A stretch of 39,201 nt of DNA from a virus, in IMG/VR virus record IMGVR_UViG_3300047494_000030, positions 1 through 39,201 of that record, one strand, 5' to 3'. The notes beneath the pieces are model-generated. The model was not told the DNA's origin and did no database searches. It saw nothing but the letters and a program-made list of their open reading frames with translations. The stretch's first letter is position 1. Every line of letters begins with the position of its first letter. Shown in pieces: positions 4,521 to 39,201 of this stretch. A program made the translations under genes and the position numbers.

Positions 4521-6095
4521 TTAGTACGTGCTCCCGGTCACGGTCTGAAGCTGTGCTGCGGTGAGGGTCGAGTTGCCCGCTCGTAATTTACGGGTCCACC
4601 GAGCGCCGCCCCCATACAGTTGGAAGTTCGTCGTCGGCCCAAGGAAAGCATTTGCCGATGACGCGACCGTTCCTGCGTTGAGACAGACGGACTCCGTTGG
4701 TCCTGTGCCGTAGGTCATGGCCAGCTTGGTGACGGCAAGTGCAGTTGCGGCGTTCGCTGTAGACGTTGCAGTCGTGCCGTTGAATGTTCTCGCGTCCGAC
4801 AAAGCGTTAAAGCCAAGTGGTGTATCGCCAGCGTCCGAACCCCATACAGGGATATTCACGCCTTGCAGAAATGGCAGGATGACTTCGGCTTGGAACCACC
4901 CTTGTGTAGCCGAGTATCCGGGCACATTGGTTTTAGGTTCAATTAAAACATCCTGAGCACGAGTCGCTGATGCACCTGCGGTAATGATCGGCGAAGTTGG
5001 GAACCCGTTGGTGCTGTTTTCCACCTGCACAAACGTGACTGAGCCAGTGTCCGTACAAACGATGGTGCCCGCAGTCGTAATAACCAGAGTTACGAAGCTG
5101 TTGCTGGTGTACCAGTCAGTGCCAGAATTCGTCGCTGTGCCTGTACCAGTTCCTAAAGCAGTACCGAGAGACACGACTACTGACCCCGTGCCGTACATCC
5201 AGACGATGTAAGTTCCGATTCCCAAACTGATGGTCTGCGTTGACGGAGCCGTCGAATTAAGGAAATAATTGGTCGCCGCCAGTTCTTCGTTGATACCCTT
5301 CAGCGTCGTGGTGGGGTTGATCGCTGTGCCACTGGCAGGTACCACCACGTTGCTGACCACCGTATTGCCATTCAGGTAGCTGAAATACTGCACGCCATCA
5401 GCGAAGGCACCGTAGTAGGGGGACGAGAGGACGCCAGTGGAGACATTCTCGGATGGGTTCTGGTTGGTTTGGTTGGTGACATCCTCGTACTGAAACTGCG
5501 TCGCGTTGATGGTTCCTGCAAGTCCATCACCACCCAAACCAACCCGATTGTCAAACCCGAGTACTGCACCCGTGTTCATCGCCGTATAGAGAAAGCTGTA
5601 GCGGGTCGGAGTGGCAGACAGCGCGATCACCAATTTTGCACTTGCAGTTGCCGTGTCAATCATGACAACCGTACCAGTCTTGGTCCCGGCACTTACGGTG
5701 CATGTCACTCGATAAGTGTGACCTGACGTGATCGCCACAAGCTGCACGCGGTAGTCATTGCCTGCGCCCGTAAACGTAATGACGCTCGCCGTCGCTGAAC
5801 CGCTTGGAGGACCAAGGTTCCATGAAGCAGCCGCAAAGTTCTCCGAGTTCAGAATCAGATTCTGCACCCTCCGATACCCATCGAACCGCAGTTCGTTCGT
5901 CAGCACCGGATTCATCACGCCAGCAAAGTCGCGCTGCGTGCGGACGCCAGTAGAAGTTGCGTTCGTGAAGGTGAGGCCCGAGCCGAGAACGCCAGCTGAG
6001 CCGTTTGTCAAAAAATCTGTTAAGTATGACGGAAGGCCGCCAACCCCACTAAATCGGTGGTAGCGCCGCGATGGCGCGCCTGCTCGGATAACCAT
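4521..6095 (-). CDS. Tail fibre / receptor-binding protein
   Basis: 524 aa, Thr/Ser/Gly/Asn-rich and beta-rich. The segment RFDGYRRVQNLILNSENFAAASWN resembles the start of jelly-roll/lectin-type fibre domains. It lies directly upstream of the tailspike. Confidence 0.55.
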   Translation of the reverse strand: MVIRAGAPSRRYHRFSGVGGLPSYLTDFLTNGSAGVLGSGLTFTNATSTGVRTQRDFAGVMNPVLTNELRFDGYRRVQNLILNSENFAAASWNLGPPSGSATASVITFTGAGNDYRVQLVAITSGHTYRVTCTVSAGTKTGTVVMIDTATASAKLVIALSATPTRYSFLYTAMNTGAVLGFDNRVGLGGDGLAGTINATQFQYEDVTNQTNQNPSENVSTGVLSSPYYGAFADGVQYFSYLNGNTVVSNVVVPASGTAINPTTTLKGINEELAATNYFLNSTAPSTQTISLGIGTYIVWMYGTGSVVVSLGTALGTGTGTATNSGTDWYTSNSFVTLVITTAGTIVCTDTGSVTFVQVENSTNGFPTSPIITAGASATRAQDVLIEPKTNVPGYSATQGWFQAEVILPFLQGVNIPVWGSDAGDTPLGFNALSDARTFNGTTATSTANAATALAVTKLAMTYGTGPTESVCLNAGTVASSANAFLGPTTNFQLYGGGARWTRKLRAGNSTLTAAQLQTVTGSTY

Positions 6096-6134: not shown

Positions 6135-6458
6135 TTAGATGCCTTCTCCTGCCGTGACGGTCAACGTCGAGCCGGTTGCGGCTGCAATCACTGAAATCTG
6201 CGGGTTGGGTGGCAACGTGAAAGTTTCGACCGATCCAGGTTGAATCGGAATACCGTTTGAGGTTGTCGCAGGCGTCACAGCGTTGCCTTGTGCTGCAAAG
6301 GTGAAGTACACCACTTGGGTACCGACATTGGCAAAACGAAACGCCGTGCAGCGTCCTGACGAATCAACCGTAGCAAGATTTTGGGCGGTCACCGTAACGG
6401 CCAACACTGCCCCCGGGCTTGATGGTGGATATGGGGCAAAAGAAGAAAGTTGAGACAT
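6135..6458 (-). CDS. Small beta-rich virion-module protein, 107 aa
   Basis: ORF in the late operon with an SD-like GGTGG upstream. No recognisable domain. Confidence 0.5.
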   Translation of the reverse strand: MSQLSSFAPYPPSSPGAVLAVTVTAQNLATVDSSGRCTAFRFANVGTQVVYFTFAAQGNAVTPATTSNGIPIQPGSVETFTLPPNPQISVIAAATGSTLTVTAGEGI

Positions 6459-19369: not shown

Positions 19370-19843
19370 CTAAGCTCCTGGTTGCGGTTGCTGAGGTTGT
19401 TGCGGCTGACCGCCACCACCACGCATCTGTTTCATGATCTGTCGCTGTACTTCGGTGCCGCCGCCCATCTGCGGCATGCTCCGCGCCATCTGCAAAACTT
19501 CGGCTGGCACAAGGTCGCCGGAGTCCCGCTTTGCCGCAAGAGTACCAAGACTTTGAAGCGCGCGCATTATTTTTTGCCCCTCTTTGCTTTCGGAGCCAAA
19601 AACAGGCAGCGCTTCCTCAAGCATGTTCATTGCGATATGGACGTTGACTTGAGCCGCGGCTTTCAGGCCCTCCTTTTGCTGAGGATCTGACATCGGTGAG
19701 GCGGACGGAGAAGCCATACCGCCGACACTTGCTGCGCCGGGTGGCGCGCCGGCTCCGGGTTGGGGCTGCGCGCCACCGGCCTGCGGCGGGGCTCCGCCAC
19801 CAGCACCCATCTGAGCCTTCAAGACTTCCGGGGGGACACTCAC
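19370..19843 (-). CDS. Low-complexity Gly/Pro/Gln/Ala-rich head-assembly-region protein, 157 aa
   Basis: GTG start forms a GTGA overlap with the stop of mini-ORF 7. The ends are low-complexity around a central helical segment. Confidence 0.55.
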   Translation of the reverse strand: MSVPPEVLKAQMGAGGGAPPQAGGAQPQPGAGAPPGAASVGGMASPSASPMSDPQQKEGLKAAAQVNVHIAMNMLEEALPVFGSESKEGQKIMRALQSLGTLAAKRDSGDLVPAEVLQMARSMPQMGGGTEVQRQIMKQMRGGGGQPQQPQQPQPGA

Positions 19844-19902
19844 TTGCGGCGACTCCGACGCTTATAGCCTTCGCGTGCTGGGTGGCCCGTCTCGTTGATC
19901 AT
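19840..19902 (-). CDS. Mini-ORF 7, 20 aa polybasic peptide MINETGHPAREGYKRRSRRK
   Basis: ATG with AGGTGA 4 nt upstream. The stop overlaps the GTG start of the next gene. Confidence 0.4.
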   Translation of the reverse strand: MINETGHPAREGYKRRSRRK

Positions 19903-19906
19903 GGTT

Positions 19907-19933
19907 TCACCTGTGCTTCTTGCGGTCACGCAT
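19907..19933 (-). CDS. Mini-ORF 6, 8 aa polybasic peptide MRDRKKHR
   Basis: ATG with GGAG 5 nt upstream. It is very short, so it is only supported as part of the array. Confidence 0.25.
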   Translation of the reverse strand: MRDRKKHR

Positions 19934-19959
19934 ACGTGCTCCGCGATGGCCGCTTTCGT

Positions 19960-20112
19960 TCATCTGTTGGTCAGCCTCATCGGCGCGCGAACGCCTGCGG
20001 TGCGATTCGGCATCCGAAACTGGCCGCCTGGCATGGCGGGCGCAGCAGCACGCGGCGCCACGGCACGACCAGGAGGTTTGAAACCCTGCATTGGGCTACC
20101 ACGAAGAGCCAT
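19960..20112 (-). CDS. Mini-ORF 5, 50 aa Arg/Pro/Ala-rich peptide MALRGSPMQGFKPPGRAVAPRAAAPAMPGGQFRMPNRTAGVRAPMRLTNR
   Basis: ATG with GGAGG 6 nt upstream. It has 8 Arg, 1 Lys and no acidic residues. Confidence 0.5.
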   Translation of the reverse strand: MALRGSPMQGFKPPGRAVAPRAAAPAMPGGQFRMPNRTAGVRAPMRLTNR

Positions 20113-20162
20113 GACCTACCTCCGCATAGGGAAGCGCTTGGTGCGCGACGATTTGATCTCGT

Positions 20163-20246
20163 TCATGCAGATCTCCGGCCTTTGTGTTTGGTCCGAGCGC
20201 CCTTCAACCGGGCGGGCCGACCTTGAATCTCGTTATCAAAACCCAT
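20163..20246 (-). CDS. Mini-ORF 4, 27 aa polybasic peptide MGFDNEIQGRPARLKGARTKHKGRRSA
   Basis: ATG with AAGGAA 6 nt upstream. It shares the GR(L)PARLKGxRxK motif with mini-ORF 3, using different synonymous codons. Confidence 0.5.
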   Translation of the reverse strand: MGFDNEIQGRPARLKGARTKHKGRRSA

Positions 20247-20256
20247 TTCGATTTCC

Positions 20257-20328
20257 TTAGCGCCGCTTGTTGCGTCCGCCTTTAAGGCGAGCCGGCAAAC
20301 GACCAGGGACAACAGAAGCAGCGGTCAT
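20257..20328 (-). CDS. Mini-ORF 3, 23 aa polybasic peptide MTAASVVPGRLPARLKGGRNKRR
   Basis: ATG with GGGAG 6 nt upstream. It is a paralogue of mini-ORF 4 at the peptide level. Confidence 0.5.
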   Translation of the reverse strand: MTAASVVPGRLPARLKGGRNKRR

Positions 20329-20345
20329 GGAAAACTCCCAAGAAT

Positions 20346-20383
20346 GGAAAAAGGGGTGAGCGCCTCGCGTGGTCACTCACCCC
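20346..20383 (-). terminator. Intrinsic-terminator-like hairpin inside the late operon
   Basis: On the minus strand: GGGGTGAG, a 15-nt loop, then CTCACCCC followed by TTTTTCC. It lies directly after the stop of mini-ORF 2. Confidence 0.6.
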
Positions 20384-20388
20384 GGGGA

Positions 20389-20424
20389 TTACTTACGGCT
20401 GTGCTTGCGGCGATGACGGGCCAT
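20389..20424 (-). CDS. Mini-ORF 2, 11 aa polybasic peptide MARHRRKHSRK
   Basis: ATG with a consensus AAGGAG SD 6 nt upstream, followed at once by the hairpin. Confidence 0.4.
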   Translation of the reverse strand: MARHRRKHSRK

Positions 20425-20489
20425 GATCTGCTCCTTTTACTAAGGCGGCCACCTAGTCCCGGTCAGGCAGCCACAACCGTGTCAAGAGA

Positions 20490-20633
20490 TCAGCCGCGAC
20501 TGGACTTCGATCGCGACATCTTCCCGCGCTTCATCCGGATATTAAACTTACCCGATGGATTGCGGTTGAAATTCTTTTTGTACGCGCCGCCAGGCGTGTC
20601 CTTGGTCCCGCGCTTCGTGCCTTCACCGGCCAT
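20490..20633 (-). CDS. Mini-ORF 1, 47 aa Lys/Arg/Gly-rich peptide MAGEGTKRGTKDTPGGAYKKNFNRNPSGKFNIRMKRGKMSRSKSSRG
   Basis: The ATG lies 2 nt after the portal stop, with AAGGGAAGGAAG upstream. It has 14 basic and 2 acidic residues. Confidence 0.5.
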   Translation of the reverse strand: MAGEGTKRGTKDTPGGAYKKNFNRNPSGKFNIRMKRGKMSRSKSSRG

Positions 20634-20635
20634 GA

Positions 20636-22336
20636 TCACTTCCTTCCCTTAGAGTGCGCGTCCGGGTGAGGCTGACCGGCCATCGCTGCTAGTTGCTTGT
20701 CCTTCTCTTCCTTCGCCTCGATTTCCTTCAGTTCTTCGAGCAGCTCTTGCACATGCGGTGGATCATAAGCTCTCAACAGTGCGGCACGGTTGATGGCATG
20801 CGCCTTGAACAGCTCATCGGCATCCTTTTTCCGGTCTTCAACGAAGATCGGGGACGACGAATGAGCATCAACCTTGACCTCATAGTCCTTTGTAAACTGC
20901 TCCGCGATAAATGTCAAAGGTTCCTTGGCGCCGGGCAGCATGACCTGAAAGCGCTGCGCACTCGATTCCTGGATGTTGCAGAGCATGAGCGATGCCACGT
21001 CTTCGGCCTGCTCCTCCACCACCGCAGCGCGCGCTTTGGGGCGCGACGATCCGAGACGAGCCATCAGATCGGCCTGGCCACGCGAGCGCACACCCGACTC
21101 GCCCTTGCCTTGAAGAATATGTCCGAGCCCTGCAACATCGTCGAACATGCTATCGATCTGGTCAAGATCCTTGAAGAGCGTCTCAGGCACGTCCGGCTTC
21201 TCGATGCTGACCTTCGACATTGTCGTCGGCGCCGACAGGCGACCGCCTGGCGTATAGAAGGCAAGGAATTTTTCATCGGCGATACCCCCCATGCCGGTAC
21301 CGACGGCTGGTGGATCTACCTGTAGCGCCATGAGCTTGCGAATCTGCATGACGCGCTCAGTGCGCCAATCCTGCAGCCACGCCAGTCGCGCCACGTAGGA
21401 CTCGCCCCAAAAGTAGTCGTAGAGATTGTTCTCTGGGCGGATCACGACGAAGTGCGGCCGGCCGGCGACGCCGACCCGCTTCTGCGGTCGATCAAAGATC
21501 GTCACGTCAGGAGAGGCGATGCTCGCCAGCTGGTAGTCCTTGGTCTCGTCGTCGAACACGTAGAGGTCGACCATGTCGACGAGTTCGGCCTGCACGCTAG
21601 GCTGATAGCTGTACTGGACCGTGCCTCGGCCAGCAACGCCACCCTCGATCGAGGAACTCCCACCTTGCAGTGCAACACTGCCACTGACGCCGTCGACCGG
21701 GCCGCCGATGATCAGGCGGTTGAGACCTTCCGCAAACGGCCTGGCACTCTCTGTCGAGCCGGCGCGCGCAACGCGCTTCATGATCTGCTCACGCCGCGGG
21801 TTGCCCTCGAGCTTGCCGTACAACTCGGTTTTGGTGATGGTGTAGCACATGCAGAAGGCTTCCTGATCCGAGAGGTCCGGAATGTCTTCGCGCAGCACGC
21901 CGAACTGATGCGGCTCGAGCAGGTATGACCTGATGGTCTTGGAGCGCTCGCTCCACTGCACCTTCATGAGCATGGAGCCGAACACCAGCGACCACTTCAG
22001 ACCCATACCGAAATTCAAATGCGTCTTGCTCATGCGCCACTGGTCAGTCACTTCGCGCGCCAGCGGCACCGACTTGTGAATATCGTCTTCGACAGACGTG
22101 GCGCCGCAGTAGATCGAGAAGCGAACAGCGTCAGGCGAATACAGGAACGAGGCCATCGTGTCGATGGTCGATCCGATCTTGTTGTAGGGAGCCCCTGCTG
22201 GGTCTTGGCCGCCGAACAGAAAGTAGTTCCGCAACATCGAGTACAAGGCAAAGCGGTTATTGCGCGATGCGAGGCACTGATCGATCAGCTCATCGTAGAA
22301 GGCCTGACGCAGTACCGGATCTGACGGAATGATCAC
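20636..22336 (-). CDS. Portal protein
   Basis: 566 aa, downstream of the large terminase in the packaging/head module. Size and the charged C-terminal helix (EELKEIEAKEEKDKQ) fit a portal. The call rests on synteny. Confidence 0.7.
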   Translation of the reverse strand: MIIPSDPVLRQAFYDELIDQCLASRNNRFALYSMLRNYFLFGGQDPAGAPYNKIGSTIDTMASFLYSPDAVRFSIYCGATSVEDDIHKSVPLAREVTDQWRMSKTHLNFGMGLKWSLVFGSMLMKVQWSERSKTIRSYLLEPHQFGVLREDIPDLSDQEAFCMCYTITKTELYGKLEGNPRREQIMKRVARAGSTESARPFAEGLNRLIIGGPVDGVSGSVALQGGSSSIEGGVAGRGTVQYSYQPSVQAELVDMVDLYVFDDETKDYQLASIASPDVTIFDRPQKRVGVAGRPHFVVIRPENNLYDYFWGESYVARLAWLQDWRTERVMQIRKLMALQVDPPAVGTGMGGIADEKFLAFYTPGGRLSAPTTMSKVSIEKPDVPETLFKDLDQIDSMFDDVAGLGHILQGKGESGVRSRGQADLMARLGSSRPKARAAVVEEQAEDVASLMLCNIQESSAQRFQVMLPGAKEPLTFIAEQFTKDYEVKVDAHSSSPIFVEDRKKDADELFKAHAINRAALLRAYDPPHVQELLEELKEIEAKEEKDKQLAAMAGQPHPDAHSKGRK

Positions 22337-22818
22337 GCAGCAACCTTGCCCTCAGCCGAGGCGTCCTGTCTGGCGACAGTGCGCTCGGTGCGCTTCATGG
22401 GCAAGACCTCCCTGGTAATACCGGTGCTTGCCGCCTGTCGCATCCCGTCTGGCACATGCTCGACGGTACCATCCTTGTGCCGGTAGTTGGCGCCCTGCGC
22501 CGCTTTCTGAGTGAGTGCGTTGAAGTTCATGCCGAGATTCTTTTCAGCTTCCTTGGTGCCCCACAGCAGTTGCTTGCCGGCGTCGCCACCATAGGCAGTG
22601 TCGCCTTCGCGCTGCGCCGAGCGGAAGTTGCTGATGCCCATGCTCTCAGCCGATTTGCGGATGCCGGCGTCAAAGCGCTTGGTCGCATCCGAGCGCGTGC
22701 CCGGCGCTTTCAGGTAGACCTTGATGACGTCTTCAGACTCGCAGCCAAGCTCGGGGCAAATCGGGTGAGATCCTTCGAACACTCCATGCAGGGAGCACTT
22801 GTAGTCGTTCAGGATCAT
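22333..22818 (-). CDS. Hypothetical protein with N-terminal Cys/His zinc-ribbon-like motif, 161 aa
   Basis: The sequence CSLHGVFEGSHPICPELGC lies at the N-terminus. The stop forms an ATGA overlap with the portal start. Confidence 0.5.
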   Translation of the reverse strand: MILNDYKCSLHGVFEGSHPICPELGCESEDVIKVYLKAPGTRSDATKRFDAGIRKSAESMGISNFRSAQREGDTAYGGDAGKQLLWGTKEAEKNLGMNFNALTQKAAQGANYRHKDGTVEHVPDGMRQAASTGITREVLPMKRTERTVARQDASAEGKVAA

Positions 22819-23186
22819 GGTTTTCTCAGCCTCGGGCCGCTTGCGGTGATGTCAATGCCAAAGCGCATGCCAGTCTGCGGCGCCGCCTCAGTCTTGGCAG
22901 GCTTGACTCGCTCGAGCTCGGCAATCTTCGTCGTTTTCACGAGAGCCAGCTCCCCACGGTCTACGGCCAAGAACATGCGCGAGAGCAGCAGCTGGTCGCG
23001 ATCGGTAAACTCGGCCTTGTCGGCCGCCAGATTCCGGATATGAACCTGGCTGCGCCCAATATACCGCGCAACATCGGCCAACCGCAACTGTTGTGGGCGA
23101 CCTTTGACGTGAGGGGCTTCGCCGGGCTCGAGCCGGCATGCAGCGAGCCTCCTTCGCAGTTCGGCGCGGGGCAGCGTGTTGATCAC
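22815..23186 (-). CDS. Hypothetical protein with HTH-like segment, 123 aa
   Basis: The segment LRLADVARYIGRSQVHIRNLA resembles a helix-turn-helix. The gene overlaps both the terminase stop and the next gene. Confidence 0.45.
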   Translation of the reverse strand: MINTLPRAELRRRLAACRLEPGEAPHVKGRPQQLRLADVARYIGRSQVHIRNLAADKAEFTDRDQLLLSRMFLAVDRGELALVKTTKIAELERVKPAKTEAAPQTGMRFGIDITASGPRLRKP

Positions 23187-26055: not shown

Positions 26056-26152
26056 CATTTTCCCAAATTAAAATAAGGCCTGACTTGCGATCTTGGTTGC
26101 CGCCTCACGCAAGCCTTTCGTGTCTGCTTTCCACGTCGCTCTCTCATGAAAC

Positions 26153-26371
26153 CTAGTCCTTGGTGGCGGGCACTTCTTGAGCGAACCGGATGATGCGCCG
26201 CACTCGACTTAAGTGCTCGTGAGCCCTTTCAATGTTAGCGACAAATTCCGTCATGTCGGGCTTCCCAAATTGCTCATCGGCACGAATCATCGCACTCATG
26301 GCGATGCGGAAGTTGTCAGCTAACGAGCGTACTGGCGGCACAGAACTCACTTGATCCTCCAGACCCGACAC
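26153..26371 (-). CDS. Hypothetical protein, 72 aa
   Basis: Second gene of the late arm, overlapping the upstream ORF by 25 nt. Confidence 0.45.
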   Translation of the reverse strand: MSGLEDQVSSVPPVRSLADNFRIAMSAMIRADEQFGKPDMTEFVANIERAHEHLSRVRRIIRFAQEVPATKD

Positions 26372-26622
26372 GACTTGCCCTTCACCAGCGTGCGAACCTT
26401 GAACGCCTTGCCCTCAGCCTGCGGCTTCTTCATGTACCAGTCCAAAGCCTTCGATACCGCCTGGTAGGACCGATTCACAACCGCCGACTCGCGCGGGTGC
26501 ATCAGATCGAAAAGATACTGCGCCGCCCGACCAGAATTTCGCCCCGTCGGCGGCGCAATCACCCTCTTGTCGATCGTCATGTCAAACGCAGGCAATCCAC
26601 CTACCGATGCAGCTTTCTCCAT
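26347..26622 (-). CDS. Hypothetical protein, 91 aa, first gene of the late arm (ends ...KGKSCRVWRIK)
   Basis: The ORF starts at the edge of the 546-bp intergenic region. No domain could be named with confidence. Confidence 0.5.
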   Translation of the reverse strand: MEKAASVGGLPAFDMTIDKRVIAPPTGRNSGRAAQYLFDLMHPRESAVVNRSYQAVSKALDWYMKKPQAEGKAFKVRTLVKGKSCRVWRIK

Positions 26623-26782
26623 GTCGCTACCACTTTAACTAGTGACCACACTATAGATCACCACTACAACAATTGGAATACAACTTCTAAAATTCTTTTT
26701 TTGGGGGAAACGTGAGGGGCACTCGTTCTCGGTGATGCAAAACCCAAGGAATTCCTTACGCCCAGGGCAAAAACGCGGAGAT

Positions 26783-26811
26783 TTGACAGTCGAAAGTGGT
26801 TTACATAATAA
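26783..26811 (+). promoter_or_regulatory. Near-consensus sigma70 promoter facing right (TTGACA, 17-nt spacer, TAATAA)
   Basis: TTGACA lies at 26783-26788, followed by an exact 17-nt spacer and TAATAA at 26806-26811. It sits in an AT-richer non-coding region about 360 nt upstream of the next credible CDS. Confidence 0.6.
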
Positions 26812-26959
26812 AGGTTATGCGAATGTGCACTGCATCATACTAAACTAATCAACAGGTTAGGCCATCTGTCCGATTATCGAGTGAGCTGGCAGCATGTTAA
26901 ATCCGATGATGCGTCGCAACAATGGAAGGAATTACAAGCTCTCTGCCGAGCTGCAGTGC

Positions 26960-27004
26960 TGCTGGTCGATGCGGTCTGGTGCTGGTCGATGGCTCGCGGT
27001 CTGG
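26960..27004. repeat. Tandem direct repeat, unit TGCTGGTCGATG-(0 or 5 nt)-CGGTCTGG, two copies
   Basis: TGCTGGTCGATG occurs at 26960 and 26980. CGGTCTGG occurs at 26972 and 26997. Confidence 0.85.
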
Positions 27005-27168
27005 TATACGACATTTCGTATGGCGAGGGGCGCTGCGCTCGCCTCCCGCTTATACATCATAAAACGATCTTTCTATATAACGAATTGATCTAACGATTTT
27101 CCTTGTGTTGTTCTGGCGCTGTGCTAGTCTGTGGCTGTTCCTAACCATTTGGTTAAGACATTCTCACG

Positions 27169-27381
27169 GTGACGGTTCCAGATTACAAAACAGAGGACGG
27201 TCGCCGGTTCGGCAAGATCGCAGATGCTGCATCCTACATCGTCAAGGCTTGCAACGCTCACGATGAACTGGTGGCAGCGCTCAAGGAAGCGAAAGACGTG
27301 CTCCAAAACTGCCCTGCAACGGGCGACCTTGTTCGCGCTGTGTTCAAGGCCGATGCCGCACTCGCCAAGGTGGCCGCATGA
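27169..27381 (+). CDS. Hypothetical small protein, 70 aa (GTG start)
   Basis: First ORF of the plus-strand mini-cassette, with helical Ala/Lys/Asp-rich composition. It forms an ATGA overlap with the next ORF. The SD is weak. Confidence 0.45.
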   Translation: MTVPDYKTEDGRRFGKIADAASYIVKACNAHDELVAALKEAKDVLQNCPATGDLVRAVFKADAALAKVAA

Positions 27382-27524
27382 GCTACCTAGAACAGTTCAA
27401 CGCATTGTGCAAGGCAGCGGGACAGCCGCAGATCAAGCTGAATGCTGATGGTTCATTTGTGATTGTTTCTGTGCCGAAGATCGTTCGCGATACGCTGAAC
27501 GCTGCAGCGAAGGTGCGTAAATGA
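27378..27524 (+). CDS. Hypothetical small protein, 48 aa (MSYLEQFNALCKAAGQPQIKLNADGSFVIVSVPKIVRDTLNAAAKVRK)
   Basis: ATGA overlaps at both ends suggest translational coupling. Confidence 0.4.
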   Translation: MSYLEQFNALCKAAGQPQIKLNADGSFVIVSVPKIVRDTLNAAAKVRK

Positions 27525-27592
27525 GCGCTGATTTTGCGACGTTGGACGCTCTCTTAGAGGGCGTTCCTTTTTCCTACTTGGAGGTTCTATGA
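27521..27592 (+). CDS. Possible 23-aa ORF (MSADFATLDALLEGVPFSYLEVL)
   Basis: It bridges the two neighbouring ORFs with ATGA overlaps. It is very short. Confidence 0.25.
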   Translation: MSADFATLDALLEGVPFSYLEVL

Positions 27593-27735
27593 AACGTCTT
27601 GTCCTGCTGTTGCTGTTCCTGCCGCTCTATGCGTTTGCGCTCAATGGTCCTGCTCGCATGCCTGTAGGGCCGATGAAGCGGCCTGTGATCGTTCACTATC
27701 CGATCATGGGGCCTGTGATTAACGGCAGGCATTGA
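27589..27735 (+). CDS. Small secreted peptide, 48 aa, with cleavable signal peptide (MKRLVLLLLFLPLYAFA / LNGPARMPVGPMKRPVIVHYPIMGPVINGRH)
   Basis: GGAGG SD 5 nt upstream, a classic n-h-c signal peptide with an AFA cleavage motif, and a Pro-rich basic mature part. A terminator follows. Confidence 0.55.
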   Translation: MKRLVLLLLFLPLYAFALNGPARMPVGPMKRPVIVHYPIMGPVINGRH

Positions 27736-27737
27736 TC

Positions 27738-27770
27738 AAAAAAGCCGGCGTTTTGCCGGTTTTGATTTTT
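27738..27770. terminator. Bidirectional intrinsic terminator
   Basis: Stem AAAGCCGGC / GCCGGTTT with a 5-nt loop, flanked by an A-run upstream and TTTGATTTTT downstream. It lies between the plus mini-cassette and the end of the early-left operon. Confidence 0.75.
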
Positions 27771-27891
27771 AGGCCCTAGAATCGATTTGTTTGGTGTCAA
27801 GCTGGGTAGGTATTGACAGGTCGGTTTTCGTTGAACTGGCGTCGATCTGAGCGGGATTTGGGCTATTCGGCATGGGGTTTGTCTTTCCAGC

Positions 27892-39074: not shown

Positions 39075-39201
39075 CTAATGAAGACTGAACTAGAGGCCGT
39101 TCGCACTTGGGCGAAGGAAAAGATCGCGTCGGGGGCAGAACCCCCATGGGCGTGGTATCAATACATGAAGCTGATTGAGACTACGGACGCGATTTTAAGC
39201 G
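39075..39201. repeat. Terminal overlap copy 2 (identical to 1-127); contains the 5' part of the 88-aa ORF from 39078
   Basis: Direct comparison of the window ends. Confidence 0.97.

Follow-up and report, generated by a model that had tools for sequence, protein, structure and literature searches.

A conserved cassette of predicted polybasic micro-genes and a new RNA pseudoknot next to the head genes of a family of uncultured phages

What does a tailed phage encode in a stretch of its late genes that seems to hold no gene of ordinary size? The question is raised by the IMG/VR virus record IMGVR_UViG_3300047494_000030, whose whole sequence of 39,201 nucleotides (nt) was analysed and is referred to below as the window. 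The late genes are read from the minus strand in the order large terminase subunit, two small genes, a gene of 566 amino acids (aa) that we call portal-like, a stretch of ~0.8 kb, a 157-aa gene, a 191-aa gene and the major capsid gene. It is the ~0.8 kb stretch (the minus strand of 19840-20633), here called the cassette, that concerns us. A preliminary description of the same DNA had reported that the coding strand has no open reading frame (ORF) of 60 aa or more between the stop codon of the portal-like gene (TGA 20638-20636) and the GTG at 19843, and that the space is filled instead with very small ORFs, each preceded by a Shine-Dalgarno (SD) sequence and encoding a polybasic peptide. Most of that account is borne out: the long ORF is indeed lacking, the first mini-ORF begins 2 nt past the portal-like stop, the TGA of the last one overlaps the GTG of the next gene (GTGA), the C-terminal tails are as basic as described (e.g., ...RRKHSRK and ...KRRSRRK), the third and fourth ORFs have GR(L)PARLKGxRxK in common through different synonymous codons, and every product is extremely cationic, with an isoelectric point (pI) of at least 11.5. 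The count had to be amended from seven mini-ORFs to eight, a 16-aa ORF having been overlooked, and the ORF reported to encode 8 aa is more likely one of 18 aa, of which only the last 8 codons had been counted. Absent from the preliminary description was the most conserved element of the region, an RNA pseudoknot upstream of the 11-aa ORF.

Comparison with relatives shows that the cassette belongs to a large family of uncultured phages of ~35-41 kb and that it encodes at least four sequence families (A, B, C and D) of intrinsically disordered polycations. As judged from the sequences of these relatives, it is a conserved and apparently translated set of micro-genes under peptide selection, and the expression of one of its products, peptide B, appears to be tied to RNA structures in cis, namely the pseudoknot upstream of its ORF and, where that ORF stops, a stable hairpin.

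In the window the eight mini-ORFs follow one another as a chain, in the order 47, 11, 23, 27, 16, 50, 18 and 20 aa (Table 1), with pI values of 11.5-12.0 and net charges that total +55. All eight start with ATG, GTG being the start codon of several of the large neighbour genes, and start/stop overlaps (ATGA/GTGA) chain the downstream mini-ORFs to the 157-aa gene, the series as a whole being linked at its other end to the portal-like gene. The calculated duplex energies with the anti-SD sequence are -5.6 to -10.8 kcal/mol for seven of the ORFs and -4.3 kcal/mol for the 20-aa ORF, as compared to -8.9 kcal/mol for the capsid gene; with ATG starts and SD energies near that of the capsid gene, high expression of the mini-ORFs is plausible. 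The N-terminus MNExGHxxAR is common to D1 and its neighbouring 20-aa paralogue D2. On the minus strand of the whole window, 7 of the 11 polybasic ORFs with an SD sequence lie inside the cassette, which makes up 2% of the length. The coding status of the 50-aa ORF is the least certain of the set.

When the portal-like protein was used to scan viral contigs, 20 loci were obtained, and a profile scan detected over 564 relatives, 80 of which were retrieved; the relatives compared have 40-99% identity in the portal-like protein and 41-66% GC, and individual loci are designated by L numbers. In every locus with enough flanking sequence, the gap between the portal-like gene and the "SVPPE" gene (in the window, the 157-aa gene) is 110-790 nt long, contains no long ORF and is occupied by polybasic mini-ORFs of recognisable families. 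Their number ranges from 2 to 8 per genome, and families C and D have paralogues inside one genome. Family A (PGxAYKRNFNxxPxGKFxxRMxRxxxSRSKSxRG, 39-54 aa) is missing from the shortest gaps. Family B, which is nearly ubiquitous and only 9-17 aa long, reads MARRHRRxKRK, or MRKGRKGRKSRK in the AT-rich relatives. Family C is present in one to four copies and takes the forms ...PAGRRGAGGxYARR..., ...LPARTRGGGGRYA... and ...PARLKGxR...; ORFs related to C1 ("PAGRRGAGG / PARTRGGGGRYA") are found at other loci. Family D (...GH..R(E/D)GYK(R/K)RxRRx) usually provides the final ORF, which overlaps the start of the next gene, and its homologues in this place at other loci include MHEAGHTQSRDYKRRGRRSK, MGILDHSTRGYKKPRRSRRMT and MFVGRHVGYRKPKRGSRK. 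The members of families C and D are 13-45 aa long. AT-rich relatives have an extra 13-aa ORF (MYRKxKRGRKTRR) upstream of the pseudoknot, and the 50-aa ORF is found only in near-identical relatives.

Two loci depart from the family B pattern. In L016 (~6205-6313, i.e., portal stop +237..+344) and L033 (+196), the ORF in the B position has an N-terminal hydrophobic or amphipathic extension (MIMSEALMFDPLGEALHALQALLSMFRRHRRHRR and MATFAMFDPIAALVELFSSMFRRHHKRGRR, respectively), which may make of it a membrane- or protein-anchored polybasic tail; neither locus has the pseudoknot. In the GenBank records of the two nearest deposited relatives, L021 (MW202753.1, 4740-5038) and L022 (MW202825.1, 5779-6039), opposite-strand coding sequences labelled "hypothetical protein" are laid over the mini-ORFs and the pseudoknot, and the actual mini-ORFs (the 13-aa MRKAYKKTRKTRR, MARAKRKGRKARK and others) are unannotated. 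In view of the coding evidence given below, these opposite-strand coding sequences look like gene-caller artefacts.

Could the cassette be no more than a decayed pseudogene or a non-coding spacer, whose ORFs are Arg-rich merely from lying in GC-rich DNA? Out-of-frame ORFs in GC-rich DNA are commonly Arg-rich, and the GenBank relatives do annotate opposite-strand ORFs here, but the comparative data refute this explanation and we give it practically no credence. None of the relatives has a single intact longer gene in this place, as a decayed gene would lead one to expect, and the frames did not prove to be unconserved: the peptide families are kept across the relatives, with synonymous variation, down to 40% portal identity, in agreement with the peptide-level selection proposed in the preliminary description. 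In relatives at 41-47% GC, including the GenBank relatives with 45% GC and the entire AT-rich clade, the peptides are retained but Lys replaces Arg, so that the richness in Arg is not an artefact of GC content. Among 43 distinct B peptides the net charge is constant at +6 to +9 while the ratio Arg/(Arg+Lys) tracks GC (r 0.77), and a basic position may be filled by Arg, Lys or His. In a codon alignment of ORF B from 11 distinct loci, codon positions 1 and 2 are nearly fixed and the third positions of the four-fold degenerate GCN and CGN codons have an entropy of 1.3-2.0 bits. The ratio of non-synonymous to synonymous polymorphism (pN/pS) is 0.38 for the core of family A and 0.22 for that of family C, as against 1.2-3.1 for the other two frames of the same nucleotides (~1.5 for family A), although the sequences were chosen by peptide motif, a choice that favours the true frame. 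Both this ratio and the codon-position pattern speak for the mini-ORF frames rather than for the alternative frames of the coding strand, and the strong enrichment of SD-preceded polybasic ORFs here, relative to the rest of the genome, likewise argues against a pseudogene or spacer.

The same picture emerges at short evolutionary distance. In a relative whose flanking genes are 97.5% identical, the first 330 nt of the cassette (A, the pseudoknot, B and the hairpin) have no substitution, where ~8 would be expected from the rate in the flanks, and the rest of the cassette has 10 synonymous and 4 non-synonymous changes inside mini-ORF frames. C1 differs from its counterpart in this relative by 3 synonymous and 0 non-synonymous changes, and the 16-aa ORF differs from that of L002 by 3 and 1, respectively; the corresponding figures from close-relative comparison are 3 and 1 for D1, and 1 and 2 for the 50-aa ORF. 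The substitutions are better accounted for by the individual mini-ORF frames than by any one frame of either strand. Taken at the level of aligned sequences, these comparisons show selection that appears to keep the positive charge and a few Gly, Tyr, His and Ser positions.

Table 1. Positions of the cassette elements, and then of neighbouring features, in the window
Feature	Position	Strand	Remarks
Mini-ORF A	20490..20633	minus	47 aa, net charge +12; family A
H-type RNA pseudoknot	20443..20484	minus	S1 20479-20475 with 20464-20460; S2 20472-20466 (GGCUGCC) with 20453-20447 (GGUGGCC)
SD AAGGAG and mini-ORF B	SD 20436-20431, ORF 20424-20389	minus	11 aa, MARHRRKHSRK
GC-rich hairpin and U5	hairpin 20383-20353, U5 20352-20348	minus	12-pair stem; starts 6 nt after ORF B stop
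Mini-ORF C1	20257..20328	minus	23 aa, MTAASVVPGRLPARLKGGRNKRR
Mini-ORF C2	20163..20246	minus	27 aa, MGFDNEIQGRPARLKGARTKHKGRRSA; C1 paralogue
Unnamed 16-aa mini-ORF	20116..20166	minus	MNEIKSSRTKRFPMRR; GGAG 6 nt upstream; ATGA overlap with C2 stop
Unnamed 50-aa mini-ORF	19960..20112	minus	Ala/Pro/Arg-rich, net charge +9; strongest SD (GGAGG, -10.8 kcal/mol)
Mini-ORF D1	19907..19963	minus	18 aa, MNESGHRGARMRDRKKHR; ATGA overlap with preceding stop
Mini-ORF D2	19840..19902	minus	20 aa, MINETGHPAREGYKRRSRRK; stop overlaps start of 157-aa gene
157-aa gene (VSVPPEV...)	19370..19843	minus	downstream border of cassette; GTG start at 19843
566-aa portal-like gene	20636..22336	minus	upstream border of cassette; TGA 20638-20636; downstream of large terminase
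Large terminase subunit	24955-23183	minus	phrog_2 match
Terminal overlap	1-127 and 39075-39201		identical over 127 nt

The pseudoknot is of the H type and lies 2-35 nt upstream of the ORF B start, with the SD sequence itself outside it. Across the relatives its architecture consists of a first stem (S1) of 3-8 base pairs (bp), a first loop (L1) of 2-3 nt (UAU), the 5' strand of the second stem (S2a, GGCUGCY) within the S1 loop, a second loop (L2) of 0-2 nt, an A-rich third loop (L3) and the 3' strand of the second stem (S2b, RGUGGCC). The motif TGGCTGCY-N8-20-GTGRCC occurs once in the window, where 0 would be expected, and 19 of 22 loci have a single copy of it. S2 is 97.4% paired in an unbiased MAFFT alignment of 50 sequences (97.4-97.5% overall), five of its seven pairs are compensatory, and none of 500 shuffles reaches its score; its closing pair, among 64 distinct model-aligned sequences, is UA in 38, CG in 16, AU in 6 and UG in 4, and is unpaired in none. 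Swaps of the whole S2 helix exist (e.g., GGUUUCU/AGAAACC), and one subclade has two internal mismatches in it. The arms of S1 also covary (GAAGG/CCUUC, CGUGG/CCACG, CGCAG/CUGCG, AGAG/CUCU and others), with 4.13 bp between a sequence's own arms versus 3.29±0.11 bp between swapped arms, a value matched in 0 of 2000 permutations. The shuffles ignore phylogeny, but chance is an unlikely explanation in view of the controls with slid partners and of the number of independent types of pair. Conserved G·U pairs assign the structure to the mRNA strand. A covariance model matches the window at 20484-20443 with 34.8 bits (E 1.5e-7) and has exactly one match in 73 of 94 sequences, on the coding strand and just downstream of the portal-like gene; in 72 of the 72 matches with room for it, a polybasic ORF of 9-17 aa follows within 50 nt.

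A search of the whole window against Rfam 15 at the gathering score gave 0 matches, and at E<=10 the interval 19750-20750 gave chance-level matches only, none of them at the pseudoknot. The pseudoknot is a new structured RNA, well supported by covariation, and a candidate translational operator or riboswitch-like element. With the operators of T4 gene 32, E. coli rpsO/S15 and the alpha operon (S4), as well as with small riboswitches of the preQ1-I type, it has in common a compact H-type fold whose third loop is rich in A and which lies a short way 5' of the ribosome-binding site, and the gene behind it, like those of the operators, would encode a nucleic-acid-binding product; it is unlike them in having no Rfam match and in leaving the SD sequence outside the fold.

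Several smaller features adjoin the pseudoknot. Directly 3' of S2 lies a CU-rich tract (GCCUU, CUCU or CCUC; 20443-20424 in the window) with weak potential pairing to the SD sequence of ORF B in 31 of 49 sequences, a figure obtained without a shuffled control. The tract appears to vary with the SD variant (AAGG, AGGAG, GAGG or AGGG), the mean SD pairing probability being 0.54, and sequestration of the SD sequence by it is a lead only. A TTGACA (20485-20490, minus strand) abuts the 5' arm of the pseudoknot, as TTGAC(A/C/T) does in L003, L004, L012, L013, L026, L027, L031, L036 and L038; the box is present in most of the GC-rich relatives and not in the AT-rich ones, a convincing -10 element was not found with it, and it could be a vestigial or atypical promoter or a part of the RNA motif. 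A sigma-70 promoter of ORF B's own was rejected, since there is no acceptable -10 element, a promoter scan of the window found none, and the covariation shows that the element abutted by TTGAC is transcribed. Frameshifting or read-through stimulated by the pseudoknot is unlikely, since the sequence lacks a slippery site and its frame is closed again 8 codons on. S2a in the form GGCUGCU is perfectly complementary to AGCAGCC in what we take to be the 530 loop of 16S rRNA (presumably the region of the 515F primer, GUGCCAGCAGCCGCGGUAA), and S2b (AGUGGCC) presumably mimics the same AGCAGCC with two wobble substitutions; a match of 7 nt may be due to chance.

On the other side of ORF B, the window has a hairpin whose minimum free energy is -27.3 kcal/mol (for a folded segment of 61 nt; z -4.0), with the SD sequence of the next ORF directly following it. 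By its sequence the hairpin looks like an intrinsic terminator, a form that is not general in the family: in all 55 distinct loci a stable hairpin starts no more than 12 nt from the stop codon of ORF B, which it often includes (UAAUCC-GUAA-GGAUU), with a U-run behind the hairpin in only 10 of them. The loops are often of the GNRA type. Hairpin sequences differ under an identical peptide, as with MARRHRRHKRK in L011, L032 and L044. In the AT-rich clade a sigma-70-like promoter is seen after the hairpins and just before the "MSVPP" head gene (in L021 at 4991-5018, TTGACA-16-GACAAT, 10 of 12 matches), and a similar "CCTATTGACAA" follows the second hairpin in L048, L056, L059, L069, L081, L083 and L091, which suggests an operon boundary there; in the window's clade this space is occupied by the C and D mini-ORFs and has no such promoter.

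With peptide and RNA structure set so closely together, the peptides might be directed at RNA, their Arg/Lys-rich motifs binding the pseudoknot and hairpins of their own transcript, or other phage or host RNAs, as a ribonucleoprotein switch. Versions of this idea are an autoregulation of peptide B translation, of the kind known for T4 gp32 and the ribosomal-protein operators, and a control of read-through or stability of the capsid mRNA. The obligate link between pseudoknot and ORF B (72/72) fits it, as do the hairpins, often with GNRA-type loops, that adjoin stop codons, the motifs with RGG and Tyr in families A, C and D, which are typical of disordered regions that bind RNA, and the very strong conservation of the pseudoknot's loop and stem sequences, which suggests a ligand acting in trans. 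We nonetheless consider it unlikely on balance. Peptide B shifts from Arg-rich to Lys-rich beside a near-invariant pseudoknot, which is the reverse of what co-evolution would produce; subclades that have no pseudoknot retain the peptides; and the peptides of 9-13 aa contain no effector domain. The hairpins, for their part, are kept in position only and vary freely in sequence under an identical peptide, which weakens the case for a lambda N-like pairing of peptide and hairpin. The systems of lambda and P22, in which N acts on boxB, do resemble the cassette in that an Arg-rich peptide is found beside GNRA-type hairpins and a terminator-like structure. N, however, is a protein of ~100 aa with regions that bind NusA and RNA polymerase, encoded in an early operon, and boxB is a conserved, specific sequence, whereas peptide B is 9-17 aa long in all 43 variants, without a Pfam match.

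Alternatively, it may be the act of translation that matters. Ribosomes that reach the ORF B stop would melt the hairpin or terminator and so let expression run into the capsid genes, the overlapping ORFs would relay ribosomes and shield the spacer from Rho and RNases, and the polybasic nascent chains might slow release. The placement of the hairpin speaks for this, both in the window, where it starts 6 nt past the stop of ORF B and is followed by U5, and in the 55 loci at large; so do the ATGA/GTGA overlaps that link the downstream ORFs to the 157-aa gene, and the pseudoknot and CU-rich tract upstream of the SD sequence, which could gate ORF B translation. Set against these are the scarcity of U-runs behind the hairpins and the AT-rich relatives, which appear to have a promoter-like site of their own after the hairpins, so that read-through would be unnecessary there. 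A pure spacer, leader or relay would, moreover, not need the motifs and net charge that are kept through synonymous saturation and Arg/Lys exchange, and we regard translation for its own sake as distinctly improbable. A leader-peptide attenuator that senses an amino acid was also entertained, and the interchange of Arg, Lys and His together with a U-run at only 10 of 55 hairpins rules against it. The lambda bar minigenes and the classical leader peptides are similar to ORF B in that a tiny SD-preceded ORF of a phage transcript lies beside a terminator-like hairpin. They differ from it in that bar has ORFs of 2 codons that act through drop-off of peptidyl-tRNA, and in that leader peptides are selected for particular codons, whereas in the cassette it is the charge of the peptide that is selected.

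Do the peptides belong to any known family? Family A has 115 homologues in a set of 5.8 billion clustered proteins; they are 36-60 aa long, each is labelled "hypothetical" and not one has a Pfam domain. An exhaustive search of 1.84 billion representatives with a hidden Markov model gave 15 clusters at 50% identity. No fusion of family A to the portal or another recognisable protein was seen among the 15 representatives, of which 14 are 41-54 aa long; the sole exception, P0117 (1617 aa, not encoded in the window), has 12 repeats that match only 13 residues (profile positions 13-25, the PGxAYKRNFN core) and is probably an unrelated low-complexity repeat protein. AlphaFold2, given 86 family A sequences, returned a mean predicted local distance difference test score (pLDDT) of 66, a predicted template modelling score (pTM) of 0.18 and no secondary structure, and the peptide is accordingly predicted to be disordered; a sequence search of the PDB with family A returned nothing meaningful. 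A Pfam scan at E<=1 with the 47-, 50-, 23-, 27- and 20-aa peptides and four from relatives gave no match to Microvir_J. One sub-threshold match to T7 gp6.7 (Pfam T7-like_gp67), by the 54-aa A-like ORF of a distant relative (E 0.2; 12.6 bits, cut-off 25), was followed up and the kinship rejected, the hhalign probability for family A versus T7 gp6.7 being 0.1%. The mini-ORF peptides have no match in PHROGs or NCBIfam either, the PADLOC defence library being outside the scope of these searches. With no Pfam, PHROG, NCBIfam, PDB or Rfam match and no description of such a polybasic cassette in full-text literature searches, the preliminary description's statement that this is not a described phage module holds, and we found no paper that describes a polybasic micro-gene cassette in tailed phages.

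These searches bear on a further explanation, that the peptides are polycations made late for use on the host, where they would bind ribosomes, the nucleoid, polyphosphate or the nucleic acids of defence systems, and not for the virion. The size and composition of the peptides are like those of the ribosomal micro-proteins bL36, bL34, Thx and eL41, and no homology to structural proteins was found. Against it are the lack of any family match, within the scope given above, and the setting of the genes: a fixed, translationally coupled place in the head module over very deep divergence is atypical of genes for host takeover or anti-defence, which are usually located in variable early regions. We find this explanation rather unlikely.

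The function that we tentatively put forward, by analogy and with confidence short of an even chance, is that the phage encodes the peptides as counter-ions or condensing agents of its own, to act on the packaged genome or at the interface of portal and DNA, and that RNA structures restrain or time their synthesis. As charge is their only common denominator, they would bind nucleic acid non-specifically; the position of the cassette suggests that they do so in head morphogenesis, and a copy number that varies suggests a function in bulk or by dose. The polycations would thus bind by electrostatics while the head is being made, the most likely target being the packaged double-stranded DNA (dsDNA) or the DNA/portal interface, and would do the job that is done by phiX174 J, adenovirus mu/VII and baculovirus P6.9, or by host polyamines in ordinary tailed phages. 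The number of ORFs (2-8) would tune the dose, and the pseudoknot, the hairpins and the weak CU-rich anti-SD tract would limit or time the synthesis of a peptide that would be harmful when free. Inferred as it is from position and composition, the DNA-condensing reading is the most economical one: the peptides have the features of DNA-condensing polycations as a class, i.e., charge density, predicted disorder, a place between portal-like and scaffold/capsid genes, and coupled starts. In tailed phages, a gene situated between those for portal and scaffold usually specifies a component of the prohead or an internal one (e.g., SPP1 gp7 and Mu F-like proteins), and the Ser/Arg/Gly/Tyr-rich composition resembles that of protamines and P6.9. 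A bolder version, in which a phage "protamine set" is packaged with the genome or acts on it at the portal, while a pseudoknot riboregulator of a new class responds to free polycation or another late-infection signal and so gates synthesis and sets the dose, strikes us as doubtful; such a set would include one of the smallest peptide-selected genes known (9-13 codons).

A number of considerations weigh against a condensing role. The peptides are no more than presumed to be in the particle, and we know of no need for protein counter-ions in tailed dsDNA phages; the genome is, besides, of normal size for a capsid protein of the T=7 class. Peptides of 11-50 aa would have to get into a capsid filled by a terminase motor, and to stay in it, with no obvious means of doing so; no capsid-targeting sequence or prohead protease is visible. 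Several subclades without the pseudoknot keep the peptides, and therefore the regulatory part of the model is not universal; its proposed SD sequestration is, as said, a lead only. Finally, the tight interleaving with conserved RNA structures could equally fit RNA targets for the peptides.

How close are the known parallels to a condensing role? The J proteins of phiX174 and other Microviridae (24-37 aa) are likewise tiny, directly translated, basic and disordered, and are encoded in a morphogenetic module, between scaffold and capsid genes. J neutralises the charge of the genome inside the capsid, an activity that the phage peptides would share, and it does so in a single-stranded DNA microvirus that has no terminase/portal motor and a single gene in place of a multi-family array. 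It also has a hydrophobic C-terminal capsid anchor, whereas the C-termini of the cassette peptides are their most basic part and have no hydrophobic tail. Adenovirus mu (pX) and VII, baculovirus P6.9 and the protamines are similar as Arg/Ser/Gly/Tyr-rich polycations of 19-60 aa, which condense dsDNA in the particle, as the phage peptides would. Those of viruses belong to eukaryotic viruses, however, and mu is released from a precursor by the viral protease, whereas each cassette peptide has its own SD sequence, ATG and stop codon. The internal proteins IPI-III of T4, and gp7 of SPP1, are basic proteins that are expressed along with the head genes, enter the prohead, associate with the DNA and are injected together with it. 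The T4 proteins differ in being folded, 8-21 kDa in size and equipped with a cleavable capsid-targeting sequence, none of which is seen in the cassette peptides.

If the mini-ORFs are translated, they constitute a conserved class of genes that is invisible to standard phage annotation, gene callers skipping ORFs of fewer than 30 codons, and the class includes an 11-codon gene under clear peptide-level selection. They also raise a question that phage biology has regarded as settled, namely whether tailed phages always rely on host polyamines and cations for neutralisation of their DNA, or whether some have protein counter-ions of their own. The pseudoknot is new whatever the peptides do. Short, natural and sequence-diverse polycations that bind DNA or RNA may also be of interest for work on nucleic-acid delivery.

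As to the genome around the cassette, the window's two ends are identical over 127 nt (Table 1), and it is therefore a complete phage genome of ~39.07 kb, either circularly assembled or terminally redundant. When the neighbour proteins and the peptides were compared with Pfam, PHROGs and NCBIfam, matches were confined to the large terminase subunit and to the major capsid protein (phrog_9953, E 2e-27). The 566-aa protein has no match of its own in sequence and profile searches of Pfam, PHROGs, NCBIfam and PDB; GenBank relatives with 41% identity carry the annotation "portal protein", and since the label rests on that annotation and on gene order, we name it only portal-like. The 191-aa gene that follows the 157-aa gene is scaffold-like. 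The search for GenBank phage relatives returned only two uncultured "Bacteriophage sp." genomes from Manatee Spring (41% identity in the portal-like protein), and that of the genome collection only contigs of metagenome-assembled genomes of mixed taxonomy; no cultured relative or host turned up in either. A scan of the DNA for tRNA and tmRNA genes found nothing. Between the large terminase and portal-like genes, a 123-aa protein (22815-23186, minus strand) is also strongly basic, with a net charge of +10 and a pI of 10.8, and has no family match. The leftward late genes are separated from the rightward genes by ~1.8 kb (26070-27890) in which neither strand has an ORF of 100 aa or more and GC falls to 0.48-0.49 around 26.5-27.2 kb; small genes of an early or regulatory region probably lie here.

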